Shown: positions 12,517-42,001 of the stretch, in pieces
Layout of the letters: every line of letters begins with the position of its first letter
Numbering within the stretch: position 1 is the first letter of the stretch
Sequence record: NC_028840.1
Reading direction: 5' to 3' (one strand)
DNA from: Escherichia phage slur09
DNA: 64,000 bases
The notes under the pieces: model-generated
What the model saw: the letters and a program-made list of their open reading frames with translations, nothing else
What the model was told of the DNA's origin: nothing
Database searches by the model: none
Position numbers and translations under genes: made by a program

Positions 12517-13117
12517 TGTCGGATTTGCACACTGACATAAGTTTAAAAACTGGTCGGATTTGCACAATGACAGGAGTCTCCTAAGTTTTTAGGAACGCTG
12601 AAAATGGCAGCATTATTTCGGGCCGAAGGCCCATGATTGCCTGAGTTTTTAGAGCCACAGAAATTTTCACTTGTCAAGCTATTTTGCCCCATTTAGCTAA
12701 TAAAATTTTACTTTTTCTGCACTTATCTCAAATTAACCCAAATCTTCTCAACTCTTCTCCAAAATCCCCGCAAATCAGGTGCTCCGCACCAAACATGCGC
12801 CCCTCTCGCAGTTCCCCCAAGTTTCTCTCGATCTCTCATCCTCTCCTCAAACCCATACAATCACACACCCTCCAATCGAAGTCACAAAAATCTTGTCGGA
12901 TTCGCACATCTTAATCCTAGAAAAACCGTGTCGGATTTGCACATATCCCACAGGATTCGAACGCAGTTCGTGATTGCTGGAGTTTTTAGGAAAATTCATT
13001 GTCGGATTCGCACACTATAAAAATTTTTCGGGTCGGATTTGCACACTACCAAAAATTGTCGGATTTGCACATACACGCCCACGCGTAATCCAGGGGGGCA
13101 AATGTCGGTTTTGCACA
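12517..13117 (+). repeat. eight direct copies of 15-mer (T/G)GTCGGATT(T/C)GCACA
   Basis: Copies start at 12517, 12552, 12894, 12929, 13000, 13031, 13057, 13103, all same orientation, in loose pairs; region also holds TCCTAA-N4-TTAGGA palindromic motifs at about 12410 and 12580. Confidence 0.85.
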
Positions 13118-13120
13118 AAA

Positions 13121-13142
13121 GCGCAGGGCAATTGCCCTGCGC
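13121..13142. repeat. perfect 22-bp palindrome GCGCAGGGCAATTGCCCTGCGC
   Basis: Read directly; sits right after the last 15-mer copy. Confidence 0.9.
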
Positions 13143-13149
13143 TAAATAC

Positions 13150-13335
13150 GAATGATAATAAGAATCATTCTCATTTAAAAAGCGGAATGAGAATGATAAT
13201 AATTCGCATTTAGAAAGTGAAATGAGAATTATTCAGGAAGTGAAACGATTCTCATTTAAAAAGTGAAATGATTATTAGTTAGATAGTGAAATGCGAATGA
13301 TACTGATTTGCATTCAAGAATGGAAGTGAGAAACA
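13150..13335 (+). repeat. short degenerate tandem repeats of type AGTGAAATGAGAAT
   Basis: About six units (gcggaatgagaatga, agtgaaatgagaatt, agtgaaacgattctc, agtgaaatgattatt, agtgaaatgcgaatg, ggaagtgagaaacac) read by eye. Confidence 0.6.
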
Positions 13336-13347
13336 CTGTTATTTAAG

Positions 13348-13430
13348 TTATCCACAGACTTATTAACAGCACGATTTGACTTGACAGAATCCTAGCCATT
13401 TTGAGGCGTTATTAACAGACTTATCCACAG
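13348..13430 (+). promoter_or_regulatory. two exact DnaA-box 9-mers TTATCCACA
   Basis: 13348-13356 and 13422-13430. Confidence 0.5.
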
Positions 13431-13438
13431 CTTATCCT

Positions 13439-13458
13439 ACTGTATAAATATACAGTAT
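13439..13458. promoter_or_regulatory. LexA-box-like palindrome TACTGTATAAATATACAGTA
   Basis: CTGT-N8-ACAG with AT-only spacer and TA flanks; one spacer difference from my recalled SOS-box consensus TACTGTATATATATACAGTA. Confidence 0.45.
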
Positions 13459-13822
13459 TCCTACGCAGTGAATAATTCTAATATAGCGTTAAAACGTCCT
13501 AGATCGCATTCTAACGCGTTTAATTTTGGTGGGGATACTAAAACACGGGCAAAATTGGAGGAGGCTTGAAAATTAGTTAGCACGCTAACGATCACACAAG
13601 GCGACACGTAACACCCTAACCATTAGCAGGCTAACCATCGCGGGCGCGGTCAAATGAGAATGATTCTCATTTGAGAATTGGGGCACTTCCTGATAGTTGC
13701 GCCCCGTGATTATTATAGTAGTGGGCAACCGTTACGCTTTGCCCACTCCCGCCACTCATCTTGATGCCTAGACTTGCGACGGCGTACTAAAAACCGCTTG
13801 TACCAGTGATTAAACCATCGTT

Positions 13823-14026
13823 TCATAAATCCTCCTCCGGTAGTCGATGCGTGATCTTCTCCTCTTCCCCGTAGGAGTCTACCAAATGCTGATAATAACC
13901 ATCGTGATCATAAATCACTTTATCATACTCGCCACGCTCGACCGCTTGTCGGTTTTCCGGCGTATCAGGCACATAAAAAACGTCTACCGTTGTGGTAGTT
14001 TTGGTTACAACAATTTTATTGCTCAT
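13823..14026 (-). CDS. small acidic protein, unknown function
   Basis: 67 aa ORF, acidic C-terminus (GEEEKITHRLPEEDL). Confidence 0.45.
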   Translation of the reverse strand: MSNKIVVTKTTTTVDVFYVPDTPENRQAVERGEYDKVIYDHDGYYQHLVDSYGEEEKITHRLPEEDL

Positions 14027-14041
14027 ACTAACGCTCCGTTA

Positions 14042-14149
14042 TTAAAAATTACCGTATATTCCCGGCCAAATTTTACTAGTAACATAAGTTACTATTCCTG
14101 CCGTAATTATGCTGTAAACTACTAACAAGATAAACATTAAACCAGACAT
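14042..14149 (-). CDS. 35-aa hydrophobic membrane peptide
   Basis: Hand-translated MSGLMFILLVVYSIITAGIVTYVTSKIWPGIYGNF; RBS GGAGG upstream; below track length cutoff. Confidence 0.4.
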   Translation of the reverse strand: MSGLMFILLVVYSIITAGIVTYVTSKIWPGIYGNF

Positions 14150-14174
14150 AATACCTCCTCGTAAATATATAATC

Positions 14175-14519
14175 TCATTGCGCCACCTTTCGAAACGCTG
14201 TTTCAATACTATCCGCAGTGGATTGAATATACGCGCCTTTCATTATCAGGCGCTCAGTGCATACTTTGCGGAAAATATTAATAAAATCATCTTCATTTTC
14301 TGCAATTAATGCTTCACCCATAACTTGAACGTCACAAGATGCAAAAGTCAAAAATTGAAATGCTAGTTCACGGGCAACGACCGCATTAATTTTATAATGC
14401 GCCTTGCCCTCATAAATATTAATAACGCCCTTATAAGCTGGGGAAAGCTGATTTAAATAGTTTGCTAATAATGCCGGACGGCAATTAGCAACAAAGCGAT
14501 TGCCTTCATAAATAACCAT
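14175..14519 (-). CDS. hypothetical protein
   Basis: 114 aa from ATG 14519, translationally coupled to upstream gene (TAAaATG); track extends to 14558. Confidence 0.45.
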   Translation of the reverse strand: MVIYEGNRFVANCRPALLANYLNQLSPAYKGVINIYEGKAHYKINAVVARELAFQFLTFASCDVQVMGEALIAENEDDFINIFRKVCTERLIMKGAYIQSTADSIETAFRKVAQ

Positions 14520-14520
14520 T

Positions 14521-14733
14521 TTATAGCACCCCACGAAACGCAGCGTAAAAGGTGGCAAAGTGTTTAACCGTTTCAGCGATCACGTTGCCGCGCTTATCAA
14601 ATTTTTTCTCAGTAACACGAAAGGCATTTTTATTACGTGCTACATATTCGATTCTACAATCTTCCCGCTCGAACGTGTTAACATCCACCAGCTTAAAGCC
14701 TTTCGAACGTGCAAGAGAAACGTTGCGGATCAT
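14521..14733 (-). CDS. hypothetical basic protein
   Basis: 70 aa ORF; start immediately after stop of membrane peptide. Confidence 0.45.
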   Translation of the reverse strand: MIRNVSLARSKGFKLVDVNTFEREDCRIEYVARNKNAFRVTEKKFDKRGNVIAETVKHFATFYAAFRGVL

Positions 14734-14735
14734 TT

Positions 14736-14885
14736 TTATTCCCCTTTACTAGTCATGCAGCCCAGCAGATAAGAAAATACAGCGATACCCGCGCCGATAA
14801 TAACCGCGTGAACGCCGAAAGCTATTGCAAATAATGATAAAATAGCGCCCAAGATACCTGCTAGAATAGCTCGAAAAATAACCAT
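14736..14885 (-). CDS. 49-aa hydrophobic membrane peptide
   Basis: Hand-translated MVIFRAILAGILGAILSLFAIAFGVHAVIIGAGIAVFSYLLGCMTSKGE; RBS AGGAGG upstream. Confidence 0.45.
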   Translation of the reverse strand: MVIFRAILAGILGAILSLFAIAFGVHAVIIGAGIAVFSYLLGCMTSKGE

Positions 14886-14934
14886 TTGTGATAGCCTCCT
14901 AGTTATCGGGGGATATAATATCCCCCGCTATTAA

Positions 14935-15165
14935 TTACATTAAAACAATTTTTGCCGCTTGTTTTTTGGTACAGTGTTCCGCTTTCAGGGTATCCAGTAA
15001 AAAGCCAGCCGTTTGCTGATCGATTTTATCAGCGTTATATAGTTCCTGAATGGTATTATAAGTTTTAGCAATGCCGAACTCCTGCACCATTTCATATATG
15101 ACAGCGCGATTAGATACCCAACCTTGAGCGGTAAACAGATGACTAGCAGAAGAATAAGCAACCAT
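14935..15165 (-). CDS. hypothetical protein
   Basis: 76 aa from ATG 15165 behind GGAGGC; track ORF extends to 15243. Confidence 0.4.
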   Translation of the reverse strand: MVAYSSASHLFTAQGWVSNRAVIYEMVQEFGIAKTYNTIQELYNADKIDQQTAGFLLDTLKAEHCTKKQAAKIVLM

Positions 15166-15228
15166 TTTAAGCCTCCAAATTTTTGGGAAAATTTTCAATC
15201 CACCGTTTTGGTGTAAAGGCATTATAAC

Positions 15229-15256
15229 AAAAAAGGCCGCCATAAAAGGCGACCTT
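15229..15256 (-). terminator. rho-independent terminator (minus strand)
   Basis: Hairpin GGTCGCC/GGCGGCC followed by T-run on minus strand. Confidence 0.5.
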
Positions 15257-15270
15257 TACAAAACTTTACA

Positions 15271-15765
15271 TTAAACTACCTGTAAGGATTCAATATTGAA
15301 ACATCGTTTCAATTCGTCATGCAAAACAGCGTATTCATCCCATCGGGTACTATCAGGAATATAAACAAGCTGCTTTAACCGGTTTGCATATATTACCGCT
15401 TTGTTATCAATTATCTCGACGCCACCATGTTTAATAATTAATTTTATGACGGAATTAATAGGATCGCCGCCGTTTACATATGTGCCGGATTTACTTAACT
15501 GATAATGATAAAGGCTTGCATATACGTTTTCATTTTCATACCATTCGCCCGATTCCTCGTCCTCATAACCGTCACTACCAAAACGAGAAGCGTTATCAAT
15601 AGCCATTTCATGAGCGAAAGCGTCCAGATCACAACCAGCGGGAACAAAGTGTTCCTCCGTCCAACCTTCTCCGCAATAACCAGTATGACAATCGACCAAA
15701 ATGATCATATCATGTTTTGCCGTGCTCACTTCTCCCAGTGAGAAGCCATATTTTTCTTCTGGCAT
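15271..15765 (-). CDS. strongly acidic protein, unknown function (anti-restriction candidate, inferred)
   Basis: 164 aa from ATG 15765 behind AGGAGG; about 29 Asp/Glu versus 12 Lys/Arg by hand count. Confidence 0.5.
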   Translation of the reverse strand: MPEEKYGFSLGEVSTAKHDMIILVDCHTGYCGEGWTEEHFVPAGCDLDAFAHEMAIDNASRFGSDGYEDEESGEWYENENVYASLYHYQLSKSGTYVNGGDPINSVIKLIIKHGGVEIIDNKAVIYANRLKQLVYIPDSTRWDEYAVLHDELKRCFNIESLQVV

Positions 15766-15829
15766 AATTAGCCTCCTATTAATTAACAAGGGAATAGTAA
15801 AGCGGGGTAATAATCCCCGCTTAGTATTA

Positions 15830-16822
15830 TTACTCGCTTTCGGTGTTAGTTGTAAAAGTAGAAATATCGATACCTTTTACCATTTCATCAATCATCTCAG
15901 CGATGTTAAAACTTTGTACCATTTCCAGCATTGCCGCTTCCATAGCCGCTCCTGCTACCGCTTTCGCTTTCTGGTTATTTGGGGCGTACTGGTCAACCGC
16001 TACACTCAGCAGGTTAGCGATCACTACTCGACCGATAGGCGTATCAATATAACCTTTAATCATAAATGGCGCTTTTTTAGCCACTACTTTCGTGATTTGA
16101 GTTAGTGCAATTTTACCCGCTTCCAGTTTTGCAGCGTTTACAACAGCGGATTTATTAGCGGCAACGATGTTAGCAATCTTGGTCATGGTGTTTTTTCCTT
16201 TGTTTTCAGTAGTTTGAGTGTTAACGCTTTGAGTGTTAGAATTTACAGTATGTTTTTCTATACTGTCAATAGGCTGATTTTCATCTTTCCAGAACGTAAA
16301 GCCGGCTTCTTCTATCAGATCATTATAAACATACGGGCATAATTCCGACGGTAGCAAAAAATTACCGTTATCATCAAAAGCCATTACAGCCGCAAAACGA
16401 TACCCGTGATAATCTGACTTATTCCACCCAAGTGATAAATAACGCCAAAATGAATCGAGAAAATTTTCTACGTCATAAAGATCTTTATCATAAGCCTCAT
16501 AGTTTTCTATTGTGAAAACTTCTAAGCCCGCCCCAGCATCATAGGCTTTTACTGTATTGCCTTTTACTATGATAAAATCAGCATCCGGCCCCCGACTAGT
16601 AAGCAAGTGGGACTCCTGATTATATAAAACAAGCGTTGCCCCTTGTTTATATAACGGTAGAAAACTATTCATATTATAAGCATCATAATCATCAAAAAAA
16701 TTATGATGAATAGTTTCAATATTGAAAACAAAATGTTTAATGCTGGTTGTCCTGCTACCGTCCAGCAGGTTGCGCAATGCACCTTTTAAAACGGTAGCGT
16801 TATCAGGTTTATAAAGCCTCAT
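15830..16822 (-). CDS. hypothetical protein (largest gene of cassette)
   Basis: 330 aa; RBS GAGGGGGG; N-terminal Tyr/Asp-rich half and Ala/Val/Lys-rich C-terminal half; no recognisable motif. Confidence 0.5.
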   Translation of the reverse strand: MRLYKPDNATVLKGALRNLLDGSRTTSIKHFVFNIETIHHNFFDDYDAYNMNSFLPLYKQGATLVLYNQESHLLTSRGPDADFIIVKGNTVKAYDAGAGLEVFTIENYEAYDKDLYDVENFLDSFWRYLSLGWNKSDYHGYRFAAVMAFDDNGNFLLPSELCPYVYNDLIEEAGFTFWKDENQPIDSIEKHTVNSNTQSVNTQTTENKGKNTMTKIANIVAANKSAVVNAAKLEAGKIALTQITKVVAKKAPFMIKGYIDTPIGRVVIANLLSVAVDQYAPNNQKAKAVAGAAMEAAMLEMVQSFNIAEMIDEMVKGIDISTFTTNTESE

Positions 16823-17086
16823 TTGTTGGCCCCCCTCGTTAATCGGTGAGTGAATGATATAGATATTTGTTCACTAGGGGCAAGAAAAAAGAAAATGTTT
16901 TTTATTCCTTGCCTAGCGCCTATTTTTATGATAGCCGCGCAGCGGTGTAATAAAGAGCAAAACACGGCGAAGCCACCAGGCCGTCGCATTGAGGCTTTGC
17001 TTTAGTATTACCTAACAGCGTTTAGCTCGTTAGAATGCGATTTAGGCCGCTTAAAATTGATTGCAGTCGTTAACACTACCTTTTTA

Positions 17087-17106
17087 CCCTGTATATTTAT
17101 ACAGTA
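17087..17106. promoter_or_regulatory. LexA-box-like palindrome CCCTGTATATTTATACAGTA, upstream of minus-strand cassette
   Basis: Inverted copy of 13439-13458; about 265 bp upstream of the start of 15830-16822. Confidence 0.45.
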
Positions 17107-17114
17107 GGATAACC

Positions 17115-17196
17115 TGTGGATAAGTCTGTGCAAAAGTTCTTATATCGCCGCCTATCATGTCAAGCCAAAAAGTGCTGTGGATAACTTTGTGGATAA
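17115..17196 (-). promoter_or_regulatory. three exact DnaA-box 9-mers (TGTGGATAA on plus strand)
   Basis: 17115-17123, 17176-17184, 17188-17196; further near-matches at 17448-17456 and 17473-17480. Confidence 0.5.
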
Positions 17197-17937
17197 CTTA
17201 AATGATAGTGTTTCTCACTTAGGCTAATGATTTCTTATAGTTATTATTTCTCATTAATTTATATGTATATAATATATTATGTAATAGTTAGTTGGCTAAT
17301 GAGATTTTCCGTGATTAATAGTCTGCTATTAATTCAGGCCGTTACAATCCACCAGCATGACCATCATCCTAGCAATTATTAGTCTGCTATTCTTCCAATA
17401 CACACTAGCAAATAAAAGTCAATTAATTTATTTTATAAAATAAGTAGTTATCCACTGGAAAATAAAAGTCAAGTGGATAACTAGGAAAATTTCATTTTTG
17501 CTTTGGGGATAAGTTATCAACAAGGCTAGAATGCGCCTAAAACGCTCCAGAACGCGATAAAGTTTTAGGCCATCCCATCATAAGGGGATAGGCCGTTTAT
17601 CGCTACCACGAGCTTTTTAGATTTTGTCAAGTAGGGCAAAGCAAATATAAATGAAAAAATTACTTGCCTATCTGCTTTGTTTTGTGGTATTCGCGCGCCC
17701 GTTTCTTTTAATTTTAATGCGCCGTGCCCAGGTCGCCGCACGGTGTCCGGTGGCGTTTGTCTTTACGTTTCTTTACAAAAATAAGGTTGCGCCATTTTCG
17801 GGAATCCCCTATTATTTATCACGTAGGGCGGCAATGACGAACTACACGGCGGGAAGTTTACCGCCACGCTCTTTAAAAATTGGGTATATCTTAAAGCCTA
17901 TCGGCGGTAAACTTATTTATTATAAGGAATCGACGAT

Positions 17938-18141
17938 ATGAAACAAACTTTATTGATCACTGGCAAGCCTAGCAAGGCACTAGATAGCAAAACAAAAGAT
18001 TTGTTGACAGTAGCGCAAAGATCGGTAAAATATCGATTTAAGCAGTACAAGAAAGGTCGCCAGCAAGGTCTGGAAATGATCTGGCGAAATATTATGATTG
18101 ACCTGAAAGAAAATCATAAAAAATCTCAAAAAATTGTTTGA
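17938..18141 (+). CDS. small basic protein
   Basis: 67 aa ORF with RBS AAGGA. Confidence 0.45.
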   Translation: MKQTLLITGKPSKALDSKTKDLLTVAQRSVKYRFKQYKKGRQQGLEMIWRNIMIDLKENHKKSQKIV

Positions 18142-18372
18142 CAACCTAGCCGATAGGTTTTAAGATGTACCCAGTTCGATAAGAGCGATAACTTGATAAA
18201 ATTTGACGGTCGGCACTTACCATAATGTGTCCCGCCCCCTAACTGGGATATAGCGGCCCGTGTGGAGTTCTTTAAATTGATTAAACTGGCGAGCGGATTG
18301 TTACTTATTACCTGCTGTTACTTTCTAGCAGGTAATGCGGAACAATCCCCTAAATAACTCGGAGTTTATACT

Positions 18373-18624
18373 ATGCAAAACGTTATCACCGCGCCTAAAA
18401 TTGGTCAATCCGTCTTCATTCCTTTCGTTACTAAAACGGATGAATTAACCGGAAAGGCCGAACGCATTAAAGGTGCGGCGCTTATGCCGTTCGATACAAT
18501 CGACGCGGTATATGCTGAAACTGAACGCAGTAACAACGGCAAGCCTGTTTTTAGCGTTCGCGTTAAATCCGGTGACGTTGTAAAGGTTGTTCAACGTAAC
18601 GAAAAATGGGAAGCTGTATTATAA
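18373..18624 (+). CDS. hypothetical pre-early protein
   Basis: 83 aa; preceded by AATCCCCTAAAT...GGAG leader motif. Confidence 0.5.
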   Translation: MQNVITAPKIGQSVFIPFVTKTDELTGKAERIKGAALMPFDTIDAVYAETERSNNGKPVFSVRVKSGDVVKVVQRNEKWEAVL

Positions 18625-18722
18625 ATTAGTGTTAACTTTATATCCCCCTTATTTCAGGGGGATATAACGATTAACATTAAGTTAATCTAATCCCTTAAAT
18701 TAAACTAATAGGAGTTTATATC

Positions 18723-19130
18723 ATGACTAACGTTAAAACCGCAAAATTCGCATGGAATGAAGAAAACACTCAAAAAGCTGTTTCCATGTATCAACAGTTA
18801 ATCAATGAAAACGGTTTAGATTTCGCAAATAGCGACGGCCTGAAAGAGATTGCAAAAGCAGTAGGCGCGGCTTCCCCTGTATCCGTTCGCTCAAAATTGA
18901 CCAGTGCAAAAGCCTATCAAAAAAGTGATAAGCCTCGTAAAGTTGGCGGCGGTAGCTCTGTGCGTAAAGCTCACTATGTGCGCGTTATTGCTAAACATGC
19001 TATCGATTCCGGCATTATTAAAGACGCCGACGATCTGGCAAGTCTGGAAAGTGCAAAACTTGAAACGCTGGACGCAGTAGCGCAACTGTTAGGCGTTGCC
19101 GATGAAGTAAAACAAGCCGCAGGCGAATAA
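18723..19130 (+). CDS. hypothetical pre-early protein
   Basis: 135 aa; preceded by AATCCCTTAAAT...GGAG leader motif and hairpin 18638-18667. Confidence 0.5.
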   Translation: MTNVKTAKFAWNEENTQKAVSMYQQLINENGLDFANSDGLKEIAKAVGAASPVSVRSKLTSAKAYQKSDKPRKVGGGSSVRKAHYVRVIAKHAIDSGIIKDADDLASLESAKLETLDAVAQLLGVADEVKQAAGE

Positions 19131-19222
19131 TAGTTATATCTTGCCCCCTTTTAGTGAGGGGGCAATAATATAACTGTTTAGCGATAGTTATTTTCTTCCC
19201 TTAAATCAGGAGTTTTAAAAAA

Positions 19223-19420
19223 ATGATTTTCTTTCCTACTGAATCATTAATTCTAGGCTTGTTTATTATGGCGGCCTCATTATTATTTGCTTATTTTCAG
19301 AATGATTTAGATTCATATTATTTTAAACGTAAATCTAAATTAGCAAAGCGTTTAGGTCTGCTTTGTTTTATCGCTGCCGTTGCTTGTGGTGTTAGTTCTA
19401 GCCTAGTGCCTTTAAATTAA
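19223..19420 (+). CDS. small membrane protein
   Basis: 65 aa with two hydrophobic segments; CCCTTAAATCAGGAG leader. Confidence 0.45.
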   Translation: MIFFPTESLILGLFIMAASLLFAYFQNDLDSYYFKRKSKLAKRLGLLCFIAAVACGVSSSLVPLN

Positions 19421-19510
19421 TGTTGCAAATTATAACGCCTATTACTTGAGGCGTTATATTTGGCAATATTGCCGTTATTAATCTAATCCCTTTAATGGAG
19501 TTTTATTACT

Positions 19511-21175
19511 ATGATTATTTCCGCAGAAAAACAAACCGTTATCCTGAAAATGGCCGCTGACTTTAATTTCTATGGTAAACGTCTGCGCGCTACTAAACTG
19601 GAAGTCTGCGACGATATATCAAAAGCGGTCTACGATACCACTAAACACTCTACCGCCATTTGTGATTGGTTGGAAGCGAATAAACCAGCTAAACCGAAAG
19701 CGGCAAAAGTAGCAAAAGCCATTAAAAACGATGAGCGCCCAGAAGCGGCGGGAATTGTTTCTAGTACGGTTGAGCAATGGGAAGTAAAACAGGGTAAACG
19801 CTTTATTATTACGTCGATTCAAAATAATACTTTCCCGCATAAAAACTTTTTAGCAAGTCTGGAAAAATTCGCTGAATATATCGGTGCTGATTTGCTTGTT
19901 TCTAAGTATATTTATAATAAAAACGGCTTCCAGAATGGAGAAGGTGCAGACGGTATCAAATACGATCCCGCATTTGATAAATATATTTGCAGCAAAAACG
20001 TGTTTTTAAATAACCGCCGTTTTGCTTTCATGGCTGAAATTAATGTTTTGCCTACCGCAGACTATCCGCTTTCAGGATTTGCAGAAACTGCAACGGCTTT
20101 AAATATTGAAGGGCTGGCAATTGGTCACGCTAAAATTACCGCTGAAAGCGTGCCAGCTTTAAAAGGTGAAGTAGTGCGCCGTATGTATTCAACCGGAACG
20201 ACAACGCTCAAAAACTACATTCAGCAGAAAGCAGGACAAAAGGCCGAGGCGCTGCATAACTTCGGTGCGCTTATTGTTGAGTTCGACGACGACGGGGAAT
20301 TTTTTGTTCGCCAGCTTGAAACGATGGATGAAAGCGGGGTGTTTTATGATCTGAATGTTTGCGCTACTCCTGCTGGATGCTATGAAACGTCGGGGCATGT
20401 TTTAGGCTTGCAATATGGCGATATTCACGCCGAAAAATTAGATGATGATTGTGCCGTTGCGTCATGGGCTGGCGAAAATAGCTTGCTTGATATTCTTAAA
20501 CCTAAATATCAGTTTATTCATGACGTGCATGATTTTACATCGCGCAATCATCATAATCGTGCGTCCGGTGTATTCCTAGCAAAACAGTACGCCGCAGGAC
20601 GTGATAAAGTTCTGGATGATCTTATCGATACCGGTCGCGTGCTGGAATCAATGGAACGCGATTTTAGTCAAACGATTATCGTAGAATCTAACCATGATCT
20701 AGCGTTATCCCGTTGGCTAGATGATCGTAATGCTAACATCAAAGACGATCCAGCAAACGCCGAGTTATATCACCGCCTGAATGCTGCAATTTACGCGGCA
20801 ATCGGTGAACATGACGAGACGTTTAACGTGCTAGATTATGCTTTGCGCAAGGTTGCAGGTTGTGAGTTTAACGCCATTTTCCTGACCACTGACCAATCTT
20901 TCAAGATTGCAGGCATTGAATGCGGCGTACACGGTCACAACGGCATTAACGGTAGCCGTGGCAATCCTAAACAATTTAAGAAATTGGGCAAGTTAAACAC
21001 GGGGCATACGCATACCGCCAGCATTTACGGCGGCGTATACACCGCTGGCGTAGCTGGTAGTCTGGATATGGGCTACAACGTTGGCGCGTCAAGCTGGACG
21101 CAAACGCATTTAATTACCTATGCAAACGGTCAGCGTACTTTGATTGACTTTAAAAACGGTAAATTTTTCGCGTAA
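19511..21175 (+). CDS. A1: A1-like pre-early protein (metallophosphoesterase-type nuclease)
   Basis: 554 aa, matching recalled T5 A1 size; GDIHAE, GHNG and GHTH phosphoesterase-like motifs; followed by A2-like and Dmp-like genes. Confidence 0.6.
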   Translation: MIISAEKQTVILKMAADFNFYGKRLRATKLEVCDDISKAVYDTTKHSTAICDWLEANKPAKPKAAKVAKAIKNDERPEAAGIVSSTVEQWEVKQGKRFIITSIQNNTFPHKNFLASLEKFAEYIGADLLVSKYIYNKNGFQNGEGADGIKYDPAFDKYICSKNVFLNNRRFAFMAEINVLPTADYPLSGFAETATALNIEGLAIGHAKITAESVPALKGEVVRRMYSTGTTTLKNYIQQKAGQKAEALHNFGALIVEFDDDGEFFVRQLETMDESGVFYDLNVCATPAGCYETSGHVLGLQYGDIHAEKLDDDCAVASWAGENSLLDILKPKYQFIHDVHDFTSRNHHNRASGVFLAKQYAAGRDKVLDDLIDTGRVLESMERDFSQTIIVESNHDLALSRWLDDRNANIKDDPANAELYHRLNAAIYAAIGEHDETFNVLDYALRKVAGCEFNAIFLTTDQSFKIAGIECGVHGHNGINGSRGNPKQFKKLGKLNTGHTHTASIYGGVYTAGVAGSLDMGYNVGASSWTQTHLITYANGQRTLIDFKNGKFFA

Positions 21176-21196
21176 TTAAATTATTCCCCTAGCGGC

Positions 21197-21487
21197 TTGA
21201 AATATAGCCGCTATTACAGGAGTCAAAAAATGAAAGTTACATTGCCCAAAACATTGGACGAAAAAGTATTCATTTCACCGGATGAAATGGAATCCGATAA
21301 AGTTTACCGCTTCGGGCCTATCCTAGCCGCCAAAACTAATACTGATGGCATTATTTCCGTCGATTCCCGTGATAATGATATTGTTCCTTTTGATGACGAT
21401 AGCGCTTTTTATGAGTGGTTAAGCGATAATAATTTACCCGTAAACGGTGAAATAACGCCGTATCAAATGCAGATTATTATTAAATAA
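21197..21487 (+). CDS. hypothetical pre-early protein
   Basis: 96 aa ORF. Confidence 0.45.
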   Translation: MKYSRYYRSQKMKVTLPKTLDEKVFISPDEMESDKVYRFGPILAAKTNTDGIISVDSRDNDIVPFDDDSAFYEWLSDNNLPVNGEITPYQMQIIIK

Positions 21488-21523
21488 TTTAAATCCCTTA
21501 TTAAACTATTTGGAGTTATAAAC

Positions 21524-21925
21524 ATGACTAAATCTAACCGCATCCCATTTGACCGCGCTCAATCTTCCTTAATTCTGGTTTATTCTAATGGTCAGCGTTA
21601 TCACGTTGAATCAGGTCACGTTGTTGATGATTTGCTGGAATTTAACGAAGCCCTACAGGTTACAACGTTTGCTTATACCACTGGTAAATTATCCAGCCGT
21701 ATCAAAGCAAAAGGCGTTTATGTTGATACTATTAAGCAAGAAACAATTATTGTGGATGCTCTTAAATCCGGCCTTGCTTTCGTTGTTGTCACACCTTGCC
21801 CCGCTTGCCTTGATGATCAATTGATGAGTGCGAAAGTGTTTACATGCGCCGGGATTCGTTCTAGTGTACATGGTGAAGATATTAGCTTTATTGCCGATGC
21901 TCTCGCTTTTGGTCTGGCGTTCTAA
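21524..21925 (+). CDS. A2: A2-like pre-early protein
   Basis: 133 aa gene immediately after A1-like gene; assignment by size and position only. Confidence 0.45.
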   Translation: MTKSNRIPFDRAQSSLILVYSNGQRYHVESGHVVDDLLEFNEALQVTTFAYTTGKLSSRIKAKGVYVDTIKQETIIVDALKSGLAFVVVTPCPACLDDQLMSAKVFTCAGIRSSVHGEDISFIADALAFGLAF

Positions 21926-22013
21926 TAGTTAATTGAACATAGCCCGCTAATAAAATATAATTAGCGGGCTAGATTGAATTAACCTAAATCCCTTAAATGG
22001 AGAATGTAACAAA

Positions 22014-22748
22014 ATGAATAAAGCTATCATTAATTCTTTCCGTGCTTTCCCGCAAATATCCCGCGTCATGATTTGGGATTTAGACGGCACTATCATTAAT
22101 TCTTTCCATCGTGTAGCGCCTTGCTTTGATAGTGAGGGCAATTTAGATTTAAATAAGTATAAAAATGAAGCCTGTAAACATGATTTAATAATGCAAGATA
22201 CCTTGCTACCGCTTGTTGTTTATATGCGTGAGTGTATGAATGATGTAAATACACTAAACATTATTTGCACCGCTCGACTAATGAGCAAATCAGATTATTA
22301 CTTCCTACGCAAACAAGGCTTGCGCGGTCGTGGTAATAGCAATATCCGCGTATTTTCCCGCGATACACTGCATAAATACTTTGAAGCTGATAAGGTTAGC
22401 GAAATATATCACAGCAAAGACGCAGTATATAAAAGTTATTACTTTGAACTATTTAAACAGTTATATCCTAACGCTGATTTTACGATGATTGATGATCATA
22501 AAGGTGTATTAGCGGCGGCGGCATCATACGGATTTAAAACGCTGGACGCTCAAGCTATTAACGATATTCTATCAATCGGTGTTGCAATGATAGGTGAAAC
22601 CTTTATTGATGAATCCCTCGATGATGATAATGATTATCAATTCCTAGCTGACCGCTTAAAGCTATGCTGGGAAGGTATGACCGAGGAAGAACGCGCAGAA
22701 TATAGTTGCAGCCCGCAACAATATATTGAGAAATTAAAAGTTGCGTAA
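22014..22748 (+). CDS. dmp: 5'-deoxyribonucleotidase (HAD-like), Dmp-like
   Basis: 244 aa; HAD motif I VMIWDLDGTII near N-terminus; size matches recalled T5 Dmp. Confidence 0.6.
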   Translation: MNKAIINSFRAFPQISRVMIWDLDGTIINSFHRVAPCFDSEGNLDLNKYKNEACKHDLIMQDTLLPLVVYMRECMNDVNTLNIICTARLMSKSDYYFLRKQGLRGRGNSNIRVFSRDTLHKYFEADKVSEIYHSKDAVYKSYYFELFKQLYPNADFTMIDDHKGVLAAAASYGFKTLDAQAINDILSIGVAMIGETFIDESLDDDNDYQFLADRLKLCWEGMTEEERAEYSCSPQQYIEKLKVA

Positions 22749-22765
22749 TAATTAAAGTTGAAATA

Positions 22766-22802
22766 GTTTCATCCTGCGATTAAAATGGTTGCAGGATGAA
22801 AC
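22766..22802. terminator. bidirectional hairpin between dmp and minus-strand HNH gene
   Basis: 12-bp stem GTTTCATCCTGC/GCAGGATGAAAC. Confidence 0.5.
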
Positions 22803-22921
22803 AATTACCCTGCTAATAGTAACGGGGGTGGCGGTTAGCAGACTAAGTATTCTCCCCCAACCCACTGGACACACCCACGCGTACGTAATCCAAAGAATTT
22901 GGCAAAAGTCAATTAGCGCTA

Positions 22922-23419
22922 TTAAACGGTATTAGCGAACTCACCGTGGAGAATCTCACGAGCTGCACTGAGTTCTGAAATAGCTTCTTCAAGACTTCCG
23001 AAAGTTCCTATATTTACCATATTGCCATCGACTCTGATTCTTGCCCGATATTTTCCCGAGCTTGTAAGAGTTATTCCCTTGACCCCTGTAGACTCATTCT
23101 TCCACCCCGAGGAGTTTTTACCATTCTCTGCGTGTGAAGCTTTACGAAGATTCCCCCACTTATTATTGAAGGGATCTTGGTCTTTATGATCAATGAGAGA
23201 ATCTCCTGGATCTTCTCCCGTAATGTAGAGCCATGCTACACGATGTGCCTTAAATCTCCCGAGTTTGCCCATGTAAAGAGTTATACCATCTTTCTCTCTA
23301 CCGCCTGCTGGCTTACCTTTACGACTTCCTGAGTTCCAGGTAAACATACCGGTTTCAGGATCATAATCAAATTTCTTCTGGTATTCGGCTAAGGGAAGTA
23401 GAGGTTTATGATCTGCCAT
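22922..23419 (-). CDS. HNH homing endonuclease
   Basis: 165 aa; KAHRVAWLYITGEDPGDSLIDHKDQDPFNNKWGNLRKASHAENGKN. Confidence 0.7.
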   Translation of the reverse strand: MADHKPLLPLAEYQKKFDYDPETGMFTWNSGSRKGKPAGGREKDGITLYMGKLGRFKAHRVAWLYITGEDPGDSLIDHKDQDPFNNKWGNLRKASHAENGKNSSGWKNESTGVKGITLTSSGKYRARIRVDGNMVNIGTFGSLEEAISELSAAREILHGEFANTV

Positions 23420-23624
23420 CTATCTTGAATCTCTTCCGCGACGCCCGAGATCCATCCGACCACTTCCGCTCAAACTCCGCACGTTTCTCGTCAAACTTCC
23501 GCTCCCTTTCCGCAATCTCCCGCGTCACTCCCGCAATATATTCCCGATGCTTATTGATTGCCGCAGTCGTCCCGAAAACTCCCGCGAGTATCCCGATAAT
23601 AAAAGCAATTACAATACTAAACAT
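23406..23624 (-). CDS. small membrane-anchored protein
   Basis: 72 aa; N-terminal TM helix then highly charged tail. Confidence 0.45.
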   Translation of the reverse strand: MFSIVIAFIIGILAGVFGTTAAINKHREYIAGVTREIAERERKFDEKRAEFERKWSDGSRASRKRFKIDGRS

Positions 23625-23811
23625 CTAATTCCTTCTCAATTTGCAGAATACGGGTGCTATCACACCGTTGCAGTAGTACTAGCTTTTCTAGCGCAACTTG
23701 TTGTTGTTTTACCTGGGCTTCTAGAGTTTTTAGGCGAATATACACGATACGAGAGGCAATGAGGATTACCCAGACTAATATTACTATTAGTGTAACTGCC
23801 ACTTCCATCAT
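23617..23811 (-). CDS. small membrane-anchored protein
   Basis: 64 aa; TM helix then coiled-coil-like segment. Confidence 0.45.
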   Translation of the reverse strand: MMEVAVTLIVILVWVILIASRIVYIRLKTLEAQVKQQQVALEKLVLLQRCDSTRILQIEKELDV

Positions 23812-23915
23812 TTACGTTTCTCCGATAGTAAGGTTTCAATTCTAGCTAAGTGATTATCTAAAATACACTGCCCAATAATCACAATCCCCAGTAGTGCAAT
23901 AATTACCCATTCCAT
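23808..23915 (-). CDS. 35-aa membrane peptide
   Basis: Hand-translated MEWVIIALLGIVIIGQCILDNHLARIETLLSEKRK; stop overlaps next start; weak RBS. Confidence 0.3.
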   Translation of the reverse strand: MEWVIIALLGIVIIGQCILDNHLARIETLLSEKRK

Positions 23916-24206
23916 TAGATCCACCCCGCCATAGCTGCTAACCAAAAACCTACGAAAATAAAGAATAGGATAGTTCCGAACCCAAAACTATTTATCCAAC
24001 TCTCATACACTTCTCCACGTCTACTCTTTCTTTTGTTTGACATATCTTTCATGCTCCTATATGTGTGGTATTTAAAATATTCTAGCAATTGCAGTGATTA
24101 GTATAATTATTCCCCCTATACCTTCAATAGTGTATTGTGTGGCATCCTGAACTAATTCTGCACTAGGTGCATCTTAAGTAGTGGTGGTTACTAAGGTGGT
24201 TTTTAC

Positions 24207-24440
24207 TTAGAAAACTCCCTCGCATGTACTTCCTTCGGTAAAGTAGCTTACGGGGGCCCAGAAAGATCCATAGGCCATAATTGGTGACACCAAAAACATA
24301 TCCCCTTTCCTATCAAAAACATTAGCCTTATATTTCACATGATCCTGCATATAGTAGGCCTCACATTTAATATCCTCTGGTCCTAACATGGTGCAGCCTG
24401 AAAGAAGTACAACTGCCAGAGCTAAAAATAATTTTTTCAT
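24207..24440 (-). CDS. llp: lytic-conversion lipoprotein (receptor-blocking), Llp-like
   Basis: 77 aa; signal peptide with lipobox LLSGC; divergent from and adjacent to receptor-binding protein gene. Confidence 0.6.
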   Translation of the reverse strand: MKKLFLALAVVLLSGCTMLGPEDIKCEAYYMQDHVKYKANVFDRKGDMFLVSPIMAYGSFWAPVSYFTEGSTCEGVF

Positions 24441-24519
24441 TTACATTCTCCTCTATTTAATTTATAATACTATTATACAAGATTATAGCAATATAGGCAA
24501 ATAAATTTTTGGAGGATAA

Positions 24520-41359: not shown

Positions 41360-41386
41360 ATTGTTATTAAAGAGGAGAAATTAACT

Positions 41387-42001
41387 ATGAGACTACCAGA
41401 TCCATACACGAACCCAGAGTACCCAGGGTTAGGTTTTGAAAGCGTCAACGTAGTAGATAATGACCCTATGATTCGTGATGAATTACCTAATGGTAAAGTC
41501 AAAGAGGTTAAAATATCTGCTCAATACTGGGGAATTAATATCTCATACCCGGAACTTTTCCCAGATGAATATGCGTTCCTAGATTCTAAAATTTTAGAAT
41601 ATAAAAGAACTGGAGATTATCTAGAAGTACTTCTACCTCAGTATGAAGCATTTAGAGTACGTGGTGATACTAAAAGTGTTACTATACCAGCGGGACAGAA
41701 AGGTTCTCAGATTATACTAAATACTAATGGAACTTTGACAGGACTACCAAAAGCTGGAGATCTATTTAAATTATCCAGTCACCCAAAAGTCTATAAAATA
41801 ACAAATTTTACTAGCTCAGGAAATGTATGGAACTTATCTCTATACCCTGATCTATTTATTACTACTACGGGTAGTGAAAAACCAGTTTTTAATGGTATCC
41901 TATTTAGAACTAAGCTAATGAATGCTGATTCTTTTGGTTCTACATTAAATAATAATGGTACTTACTCTGGTATTTCACTTTCCTTGAGGGAAAGTCTATG
42001 A
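41387..42001 (+). CDS. distal tail protein (pb9-like)
   Basis: 204 aa directly after tape measure. Confidence 0.6.
   Translation: MRLPDPYTNPEYPGLGFESVNVVDNDPMIRDELPNGKVKEVKISAQYWGINISYPELFPDEYAFLDSKILEYKRTGDYLEVLLPQYEAFRVRGDTKSVTIPAGQKGSQIILNTNGTLTGLPKAGDLFKLSSHPKVYKITNFTSSGNVWNLSLYPDLFITTTGSEKPVFNGILFRTKLMNADSFGSTLNNNGTYSGISLSLRESL

Follow-up and report, generated by a model that had tools for sequence, protein, structure and literature searches.

What is the short C-containing element that recurs upstream of the pre-early genes of Escherichia phage slur09, and how is it related to the hairpins that lie between these genes? Bacteriophage T5 is a classical model phage whose pre-early expression takes place from only 8% of the genome, and both the fast pre-early expression and its class-wide shut-off have been described as mechanistically unclear (PMC10644984). 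A preliminary description of a 64,000-nucleotide (nt) stretch of sequence record NC_028840.1 (the window, to which all positions refer) had interpreted element and hairpins together as one shared translation-initiation or RNA-processing signal of the pre-early regulon. The analysis presented here retains a class-specific, conserved, RNA-level signal but resolves it into two separable elements: a box with an invariant CCC core (CCC box) in the ribosome-binding leaders, and a set of intercistronic stem-loops.

The 4 kb around the element match more than 440 T5-like phage genomes, the best match being Salmonella phage PS3-1 (95.5%); judged from its sequence, the window is that of a T5-like phage of the genus Tequintavirus. 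Its + strand between 17938 and 22748 is the reverse complement of the T5 left terminal repeat, which according to the T5 reference annotation is the first-step-transfer (FST) DNA bearing the pre-early genes. The + strand open reading frames (ORFs) were named by tblastn as T5.007 (start at 18373), A2 (18723), T5.005 (19223), A1 (19511), T5.003 (21230), T5.002 (21524) and dmp (22014). With two strong sigma-70 promoters directly upstream, the seven genes constitute one leftward pre-early operon. A divergent pre-early operon occupies the - strand from approximately 16820 to 14000.

The CCC box in the pre-early leaders

The motif can be written as W-W-T-CCC-T-T-W-A-A-T. When the 64 kb were searched with the pattern AWTCCCTTWAAT, allowing at most one mismatch, 8 matches were found against 2.95 expected, and five of these fell on the + strand within 3.7 kb, starting at 18344, 18689, 19195, 19485 and 21987. 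A sixth copy, the variant AATCCCTTATTA at 21492, was recognized by direct reading of the sequence. At six starts the box is followed by GGAG, which it precedes by 6-17 nt, and then by ATG; the near-identical element described before for these six genes is thereby confirmed, the copy at 21492 being a variant. Four further copies were found, one before the hairpin of the T5.003 leader and three in the divergent operon. The leaders are as follows.

18344-18364, + strand: CCC box AATCCCCTAAAT and GGAG (18361-18364) in the leader of the T5.007 homolog (ATG 18373); pattern search and reading
18689-18714, + strand: CCC box AATCCCTTAAAT and GGAG (18711-18714) in the A2 leader (ATG 18723); pattern search and alignment
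19195-19212, + strand: CCC box CTTCCCTTAAAT and GGAG (19209-19212) in the T5.005 leader (ATG 19223); pattern search and reading
19485-19500, + strand: CCC box AATCCCTTTAAT and GGAG (19497-19500) in the A1 leader (ATG 19511); pattern search and alignment
21180-21222, + strand: T5.003 leader (ATG 21230) with CCC box ATTATTCCCCTA (21180-21191), 8-bp hairpin (21190-21213) and GGAG (21219-21222)
21492-21515, + strand: CCC box AATCCCTTATTA and GGAG (21512-21515) in the T5.002 leader (ATG 21524), no hairpin upstream; unstructured (fold z = -0.9)
21987-22002, + strand: CCC box AATCCCTTAAAT and GGAG (21999-22002) in the dmp leader (ATG 22014); pattern search and alignment
22762-22818, + strand: hairpin after the dmp stop codon (22762-22806; 16-nt arms, 94%; third among local folds) followed by ATTACCCTGCTAAT, a hairpin and CCC layout with no gene behind it
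15766-15822, - strand: divergent operon, hairpin AAGCGGGGattattaCCCCGCTT (15800-15822), CCC box ACTATTCCCTTGTTAA (CCC at 15790-15792) and AGGAGG before ATG 15765
15166-15192, - strand: divergent operon, CCC box AATTTTCCCAAAAAT (CCC at 15185-15187) and GGAGG before start 15165, no hairpin; follows a true terminator and a TATAAT promoter
14886-14927, - strand: divergent operon, hairpin CGGGGGatattatatCCCCCG, whose 3' arm contains a C-run 9 nt before AGGAGG; start 14885

In the divergent operon the motif copies read ATTCCCTTG before start 15765 and TTTTCCCAAAAA before start 15165. All seven starts of the leftward operon have GGAG without GAGG as their Shine-Dalgarno (SD) sequence; elsewhere in the window this holds for 18/53 starts. 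When folded in isolation, the segments from box to ATG were almost unstructured, with minimum free energies (MFE) between -0.4 and -2.8 kcal/mol.

The folds bear on one alternative, namely that CCC is a weak local anti-SD, its three Cs pairing with the three Gs of GGAG (with A bulged) and so tuning down or timing initiation. The number of Cs is exactly right, RNAalifold sets UCCC opposite GGAG in the dmp and A1 leaders, and the box is the commonest ensemble partner of the SD Gs (36% of states on average). The whole-leader MFE values nevertheless make such helices marginal compared with the much stronger pairing between SD and anti-SD. Moreover, the perfect complement CUCC is never used, the loop would range from 6 to 17 nt, the invariance of the CCC/GGAG pairs leaves no covariation evidence, and any folding program would choose the sole nearby Cs in G-poor leaders. 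We consider an anti-SD role rather unlikely.

Two features of individual leaders are recorded here. An in-frame ATG lies within TTTAATGGAG (19496-19513, + strand), five codons before the annotated A1 start, and has no SD. In the dmp leader, ATGGAG begins a mini-ORF of 6 codons, and the TGA of this mini-ORF overlaps with the start codon of dmp. As an explanation of the box, mini-ORFs upstream or Pro-stop contexts at CCC-TAA were considered and rejected, no in-frame start codons being present.

The box is specific for the pre-early class

For counting, a looser definition of the box was used: a 9-mer that lacks G, has CCC at its centre and ends 15-33 nt ahead of a start codon. By this definition it is present at 7/10 confident pre-early starts and at 1/53 other starts of the window (Fisher p = 1.7e-6). 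In T5, using RefSeq coordinates, it precedes 8/17 pre-early and 4/91 early coding sequences (p = 2.4e-5), and the four early matches represent T-arms of tRNAs or coding sequence and are not followed by GGAG. These false matches arise because the 3' halves of T5 tRNAs contain AATCCC; the 10-60 kb part of T5 has no properly placed copy of the box on its coding strand. The counts in window and T5 uphold the specificity for the pre-early class, and the motif search, which the preliminary description had proposed as a check and which here covered the window, T5 and relatives, found the box rare before genes of other classes and its core kept in the relatives. The earlier statement that the motif is absent from early and late leaders holds for 52 of the 53 other confident starts and fails for one, 7564 (+ strand).

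Start 7564 has a leader in common with starts 124 (+ strand) and 63559 (- strand), TGCTGTTATAGAAA(C/T)TTTTGAT...TTTAGAGGA; the three genes probably belong to a repeated family, possibly of homing endonucleases. Between 28 and 41 kb of T5, several annotated small ORFs have tRNA 3' halves (T-arm AATCCC) as their 'leaders' and look like doubtful genes. Mimicry of a tRNA T-arm by the box was also considered and rejected, the leaders having no TTCRA part.

In every case the box stands on the coding strand beside an SD and a start codon, in both divergent operons, and we therefore regard it as a signal at the RNA level. The opposite view, that the box acts on DNA as a weak internal promoter (with TTAAAT or TTTAAT as a -10 hexamer) or as the site of a DNA-binding protein such as A2, can point to the agreement of TTTAAT with TATAAT at 5/6 positions, to the annotation of A2 as DNA-binding and to a TTGAAC-17-TATAAT arrangement that the window allele carries inside the stem-loop before dmp (H7 below). 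Besides the constant strand and position, several observations make it very improbable: the box has no -35 partner and no -35/-10 pair is conserved in the units; promoter-like matches in the region number 31 against 28.2 in shuffled sequence; the bases that follow CCC vary in relatives; and a transcript starting at the box would have almost no leader.

Conservation in the Demerecviridae

The leaders were compared with those of T5, Klebsiella phage GZ8 (Sugarlandvirus), Erwinia phage KEY, Proteus phage 1 (Novosibvirus), Vibrio phage JSF12 and 44 Demerecviridae loci from IMG/VR. Across genera, orthologous leaders have a CCC core 6-17 nt before GGAG, while the flanks diverge. The box of the A1 leader, for example, is TGTATCCCATAACTGGAG in GZ8, TATATCCCTTAAATGGAG in KEY and AATTCCCCTAATAATAGGAG in the Proteus phage, and the Vibrio phage has a weaker form (AACCCTAACC/TAACC). 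The bases after CCC differ among the relatives (ATAACT, TACTAACT, GAATATC). From 143 non-identical leaders the consensus WAAYYWWAT-CCC-TTWAAT was derived; in this set G does not exceed 9% at positions -7 to +8 around the box, and the distance between the last C and ATG falls into two clusters, 19-22 and 26-29 nt. A1 homologs outside the Demerecviridae were found to have no motif. Since the motif is missing beside the A1 homologs of unrelated viruses, it belongs to the FST module of the Demerecviridae and not to A1.

Among Tequintavirus leaders hardly any variation is seen from TAATCCC to ATG, whereas the spacer and the hairpin upstream of this block occur in quite different alleles. One alternative is that the box is a repeat without a function of its own, a copied ribosome-binding cassette and/or a short conserved linker for the exchange of gene modules, comparable to the T4 promoter-early stem-loop (PeSL) or lambdoid linkers. 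The similarity between leaders runs through GGAGTTTWAT, so that whole initiation regions look duplicated; the boundaries of the spacer and hairpin alleles lie right at the box; and the hairpin and CCC string that has no gene behind it after dmp precedes a gene in GZ8, where the same ATTACCCTGCTAAT stands before the GGAG-ATG of an extra gene (position 356 of the GZ8 locus). Neutral copies would, however, be expected to decay, whereas the CCC core survives where its surroundings have diverged (A1 proteins are only 34-45% identical), and the box has arisen anew in alleles that differ in hairpin and spacer, its distance from the start codon being constrained. Besides, 12-18 nt are short for homologous exchange. 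The copied-cassette explanation is improbable in our view.

A further possibility, on which the orthologous leaders bear, is that the box pairs with 16S rRNA at a G-rich segment, as proposed for the epsilon enhancer and for the C-rich ribosome-binding sites (RBSs) that Barendt et al. described. Complementarity exists between CTAATCCC and 16S positions 240-247 and between TCCCTT and 451-456. The latter site adjoins 458-466, which we take to be the segment proposed for epsilon. Complementarity to 16S rRNA has indeed been shown for C-rich RBSs in vitro (PMC3310771). But orthologous leaders match differing sites of Escherichia coli 16S rRNA (240, 451, 1086 and 1512, as 6- to 8-mers), which argues against a common target, and by our own estimate chance alone would yield a 6-mer match about 30% of the time. 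In addition, the sites in question are either helical or distant from the mRNA exit. We regard the chance of such pairing being correct as very small.

A recognition site read in trans is the main rival, because the invariant CCC resembles a specific recognition site. According to this explanation, the box would be recognized by a protein, either an RNA-binding one of the host or a product of the phage's pre-early or early genes, which would mark FST mRNAs as a class. The marked mRNAs would be repressed or degraded together when early expression takes over, or they would be spared when the phage shuts off host translation; T4 RegA and RegB would be the models. An invariant trinucleotide in a G-free context has the look of a specific binding site, and the box is strictly class-specific and conserved with the FST module across genera. 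The SDs of the leftward operon are all GGAG and not GAGG, and SDs of the GGAG type are the targets of T4 RegB. Finally, the pre-early shut-off depends on A1, by a mechanism that has been called unknown (PMC10644984). On the other side, no RNA-binding domain was found in the eight operon products by Pfam, and A1 homologs outside the Demerecviridae come without the motif. According to a preprint, A1 acts on RNA polymerase and dampens transcription from pre-early promoters, which leads to shut-off (bioRxiv 10.64898/2026.04.02.716235); with such an account a translational mechanism is unneeded. An RNA partner was sought in T5 as well, and no complement of the box was present in the tRNA and stable-RNA region or elsewhere between 10 and 60 kb, the lone match, AAACCCAATA in RNA2H, being unfit. 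On balance we consider a trans-acting factor unlikely.

A wider form of the same idea, which we regard as doubtful, is that the CCC box serves as a family-wide 'pre-early tag' read by a dedicated host or phage factor, giving these mRNAs their own translational fate jointly with RNase III-type stems and boxA antitermination (see below). If this were true, pre-early mRNAs would enjoy privileged initiation during host shut-off, or would be selectively silenced or degraded after second-step transfer, and the FST operon would be a self-contained expression module similar to an rRNA operon.

Intercistronic stem-loops

Five perfect hairpins had been noted between the genes. All of them exist, but four are merely the upper stems of larger structures. 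Folding of the gaps gave 21-24 pairs in total, with 7-11 bp in the lower stem, 10-12 bp in the upper one and a 1x1 or 1x2 interruption between them. The four long stem-loops between genes have arms of 20-25 nt and z-scores of -3.6 to -6.1, and 4 or 5 of the 12 most stable 64-nt local folds of the whole window lie within this 4.5-kb operon.

18292-18351, + strand: bipartite stem-loop H1, upper stem 12 bp and lower stem 7 bp, 3' arm including AACAATCC of the first motif; z = -5.0, rank 6 among local folds
18626-18680, + strand: bipartite stem-loop H2, about 23 bp, from the T5.007 stop codon; z = -4.7, covariation
19129-19178, + strand: bipartite stem-loop H3, 21 bp, from the A2 stop codon; z = -4.5, rank 2 among local folds
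19418-19471, + strand: bipartite stem-loop H4, about 21 bp, from the T5.005 stop codon, followed by the palindrome GGCAATATTGCC; z = -3.6, covariation
21928-21983, + strand: bipartite stem-loop H7, about 23 bp, from the T5.002 stop codon; z = -6.1, covariation

The hairpins are selected structures with covariation. Compensatory changes were found in 5/18, 5/9 and 7/18 pairs of the hairpin alignments, the last two values referring to H7 (T5.002/dmp) and to the consensus structure of the T5.005/A1 junction. In H2 (T5.007/A2) the pair 29-48 occurs as CG (9), AU (6), GC (6) and UA (3). In the alignments 98% of cells were paired, as opposed to 31-64% when the partners were slid. G-U pairs are common on the sense strand, one lower-stem pair being G-U in 23/25 sequences; read from the opposite strand, such pairs would become C-A mismatches, which identifies the folded species as mRNA. 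In most alleles of three junctions the main hairpin has 20-27 bp and starts at most 5 nt from the stop codon, and its end is 0-25 nt away from the CCC box. The T5-type allele at the A2/T5.005 junction has a hairpin of only 9-10 bp.

In agreement with the earlier remark that the hairpins have no T-run, none of H1, H2, H3, H4 and H7 passed the terminator scan, that is, none combines a G+C-rich hairpin with a T run. The sole terminator-like site that did so in the pre-early region is at 15257-15232 on the - strand. A search of positions 13000-24500 with Rfam 15 covariance models gave sub-threshold chance matches only.

Box and stem-loops are separable. The box occurs without a hairpin at 21524 (T5.002) and at 15165 (- strand). 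In the T5.003 leader the hairpin 21190-21213 stands between the motif copy ATTCCCCTA (21180-21191) and the SD, an order that is the same in T5; this hairpin, listed before without its gene, belongs to T5.003 (start 21230). The gap from hairpin to box varies from 0 to 25 nt.

Two mechanisms that would couple the elements were considered and rejected. A hairpin-dependent pause does not fit the inconstant distance between hairpin and CCC, and pairing of the box with the 3' arm of a hairpin opened by the ribosome (translational coupling) would fit only the G-run stems H2 and H3, not H4 and H7.

Directly 3' of H4 lies a perfect palindrome, GGCAATATTGCC (19462-19473, + strand), which is kept in Tequintavirus and partly in Sugarlandvirus and might form another small hairpin or bind a protein. 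In the window allele of H7 the 5' arm and loop (21933-21961, + strand) read TTGAAC-17-TATAAT with 10/12 matches; the sequence is missing from the T5-type allele and could, as a candidate, be an internal dmp promoter.

Proposed function of the box and the stem-loops

Taking into account that the box is on the coding strand in both operons, that its distance from the start codon is constrained and that it is separable from the hairpins, we regard it as an mRNA element of the translation-initiation region. The reading that we tentatively favour, with a probability of about 0.42, is that the ribosome-binding region is extended and unstructured, that the CCC box makes up its 5' part and serves for docking or enhancement, probably involving ribosomal protein S1, and that the stem-loops are processing or insulating elements. 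It is preferred because the leaders are unstructured and the seven leftward cistrons have only the short GGAG core.

The box comprises about 15 nt that are almost free of G, with the last C 19-29 nt before the start codon and 6-17 nt before GGAG. It would thus lie at the 5' edge of the footprint of the initiating 30S subunit, which extends roughly from -35 to +19, and could act as a single-stranded standby or enhancer docking site, most plausibly contacted by S1. For S1, a liking for single strands that contain pyrimidines and C is reported; its preference for C was reportedly described by Draper and von Hippel in 1978. With such a docking site, cistrons whose SD has only 4 nt would capture host ribosomes rapidly during the first minutes, at a time when only 8% of the genome has entered the cell. 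The stem-loops would probably cut or insulate the polycistronic transcript in such a way that each cistron obtains its own defined open leader and little naked intercistronic RNA is left for Rho or RNase E. For this scheme we infer translation enhancement, contact with S1 and cleavage by RNase III. E. coli RNase III needs two turns of duplex, and the predicted duplexes of 20 bp or more with an internal loop, together with their intercistronic position and their selected structure, would suit this enzyme. C-rich elements upstream of start codons have been found to support efficient initiation on E. coli ribosomes in vitro (PMC3310771).

Several points weigh against this interpretation. C-rich RBS elements were reported to be inefficient in E. 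coli in vivo (PMC3310771). The spacing between box and SD varies between 6 and 17 nt. Classical S1-dependent enhancers are A/U-rich and do not contain C, and the invariance of CCC suggests sequence-specific recognition rather than a mere lack of structure. As to the stems, near-perfect duplexes of 22 bp would be cut on both arms, unlike the T7 sites with their single nick. Since the 9-10 bp allele at the A2/T5.005 junction is too short and T5.002 has no hairpin, processing by RNase III cannot be a requirement at every junction.

The accessible literature on T5 pre-early genes contains no description of the box or the stems, with an earlier mention in Davison 2015 or Wang 2005 being possible. 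Davison's analysis of the FST region treats repeats and DnaA boxes and does not discuss the leaders, and Klimuk et al. mapped promoters only. In the searchable literature there were no cleavage or expression data for pre-early leaders and nothing on T5 and RNase III. A conserved class-specific cis-element, covarying stems and an upstream boxA provide direct experimental handles on pre-early expression, and the leaders may serve as compact, strong and insulated translation-initiation parts. Should the box prove to be a mere ribosome-binding variant, a tidy annotation of the operon layout remains.

The upstream leader and other features of the region

Upstream of the first box the following elements were found.

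17867-17879, + strand: rrn/lambda-type boxA-like sequence CGCTCTTTAAAAA, preceded by the hairpin GGCGGgaagtttaCCGCC (17849-17866); operon context
18004-18031, + strand: promoter P-H22, TTGACA-16-TAAAAT (11/12); promoter scan, and T5 annotation at the homologous position
18138-18166, + strand: promoter P-D/E20, TTGACA-17-TAAGAT (10/12), the last before T5.007; promoter scan and T5 annotation

An apparent promoter at 18203-18226 (TTGACG...CATAAT) was rejected on account of its spacer of only 12 nt.

In the window, boxA is matched by CGCTCTTTAAAAAT at 17867, which lies in the leader ahead of P-H22 and comes after a small hairpin; the rrnH leader used for reference has TGCTCTTTAACAA. Among the Demerecviridae loci examined, those from phages of Enterobacterales carry 1-4 copies of boxA on the sense strand of their pre-early leaders, as matches to GCUCUUUAACAA on the transcribed strand behind a promoter. 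Often the match is CGCTCTTTAACAAT, which corresponds over 11 nt to the rrnH boxA core GCTCTTTAACA, and in Proteus phages boxA stands directly behind TTGACA/TATAAT promoters. The pattern search detected no copy in Vibrio phage JSF12. These sequence matches suggest that the element may mediate Nus-factor antitermination of pre-early transcription. If boxA is functional, part of pre-early transcription would be Nus-modified and Rho-resistant, which fits an operon with long structured untranslated gaps. Transcripts from P-H22 and P-D/E20 would lack boxA, the single copy in the window being upstream of both promoters. In the literature searched there was no paper linking boxA, bacteriophage T5 and antitermination.

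Around boxA, TTTACCGCC (17858-17866) and GGCGGTAAA (17905-17913) on the + strand form a long-range inverted repeat that encloses it and competes with the GGCGG/CCGCC hairpin just upstream, an alternative-structure arrangement. GGCGGTAA resembles the start of the ops element.

The 'T5.008' ORF (17938-18141; Pfam DUF7416) contains P-H22, which scores highest among the promoter matches of the region, and Davison counted the stretch holding this ORF as an untranslated repeat region. Both facts render the coding status of T5.008 and T5.009 doubtful. Between the two divergent pre-early operons there are paired sequences resembling DnaA boxes (TGTGGATAA / TTATCCAC) at 17100-17200 and 17440-17480; DnaA boxes at such a position were described by Davison for T5-like phages.

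Outside the pre-early region, the gene for a 204-amino-acid protein in the late region has the leader ATTAAAGAGGAGAAATTAACTATG (41363-41389, + strand), which appears identical to what we take to be the 'synthetic' RBSII of the pQE/pDS expression vectors.

Comparison with known systems

The boxA-like element resembles the boxA of rrn operons and of the lambda nut sites in sequence, CGCTCTTTAA(A/C)AAT matching the rrnH boxA TGCTCTTTAACAAT, and in its position shortly downstream of promoters and after a small hairpin.

With the T7 early RNase III sites (R0.3, R0.5, R1, R1.1 and R1.3) the T5-type operon shares tandem strong sigma-70 promoters that feed a polycistronic, first-expressed operon. When both phages were folded side by side, the gaps gave the same succession of lower stem, internal loop and upper stem (9-12 bp), and the stem-loops extend from close to the preceding stop codon to a point 10-45 nt ahead of the following SD; the places of the T7 sites within the folded gaps are those we presume to be correct. 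Cleavage by RNase III has been demonstrated for the T7 early sites. The T7 sites differ in sharing CAAGGUC...GGCCUUUAUGAU and a large asymmetric internal loop, whereas the T5-type stems are unlike one another in sequence and nearer to perfect duplexes (1x1 or 1x2 loops), with some short alleles. T7 has no CCC box.

T4 PeSL cassettes are similar in that a stem-loop unit is repeated between small early genes and allele boundaries coincide with the unit. PeSLs, however, carry an early promoter, whereas the T5 units carry a ribosome-binding leader, and their promoter signal is not above chance. As in the T4 RegA and RegB systems (RegB cuts GGAG in early SDs), the first-expressed mRNAs have common leader features, here CCC and GGAG, that could allow coordinated inactivation; in contrast to T4, neither a protein resembling RegA or RegB nor an RNA-binding domain was found in the T5-type operon.

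The upstream enhancers, that is, epsilon of T7 gene 10 (UUAACUUUA), A/U-rich S1 sites, the C/A-rich gltI element and selected C-rich RBSs (PMC3310771), have in common with the CCC box that a short, G-poor, predicted single-stranded element is located upstream of the SD within the 30S footprint, as is common to highly expressed phage genes. The CCC box is distinguished by its invariant CCC in an A/T context and by its restriction to one temporal class. Its consensus WAT-CCC-TTWAAT contains neither epsilon UUAACUUUA nor the U-rich tracts of known enhancers. On the basis of these comparisons, we rate the box and the stems as akin to upstream elements of initiation regions and to the processing stems of phage early operons.

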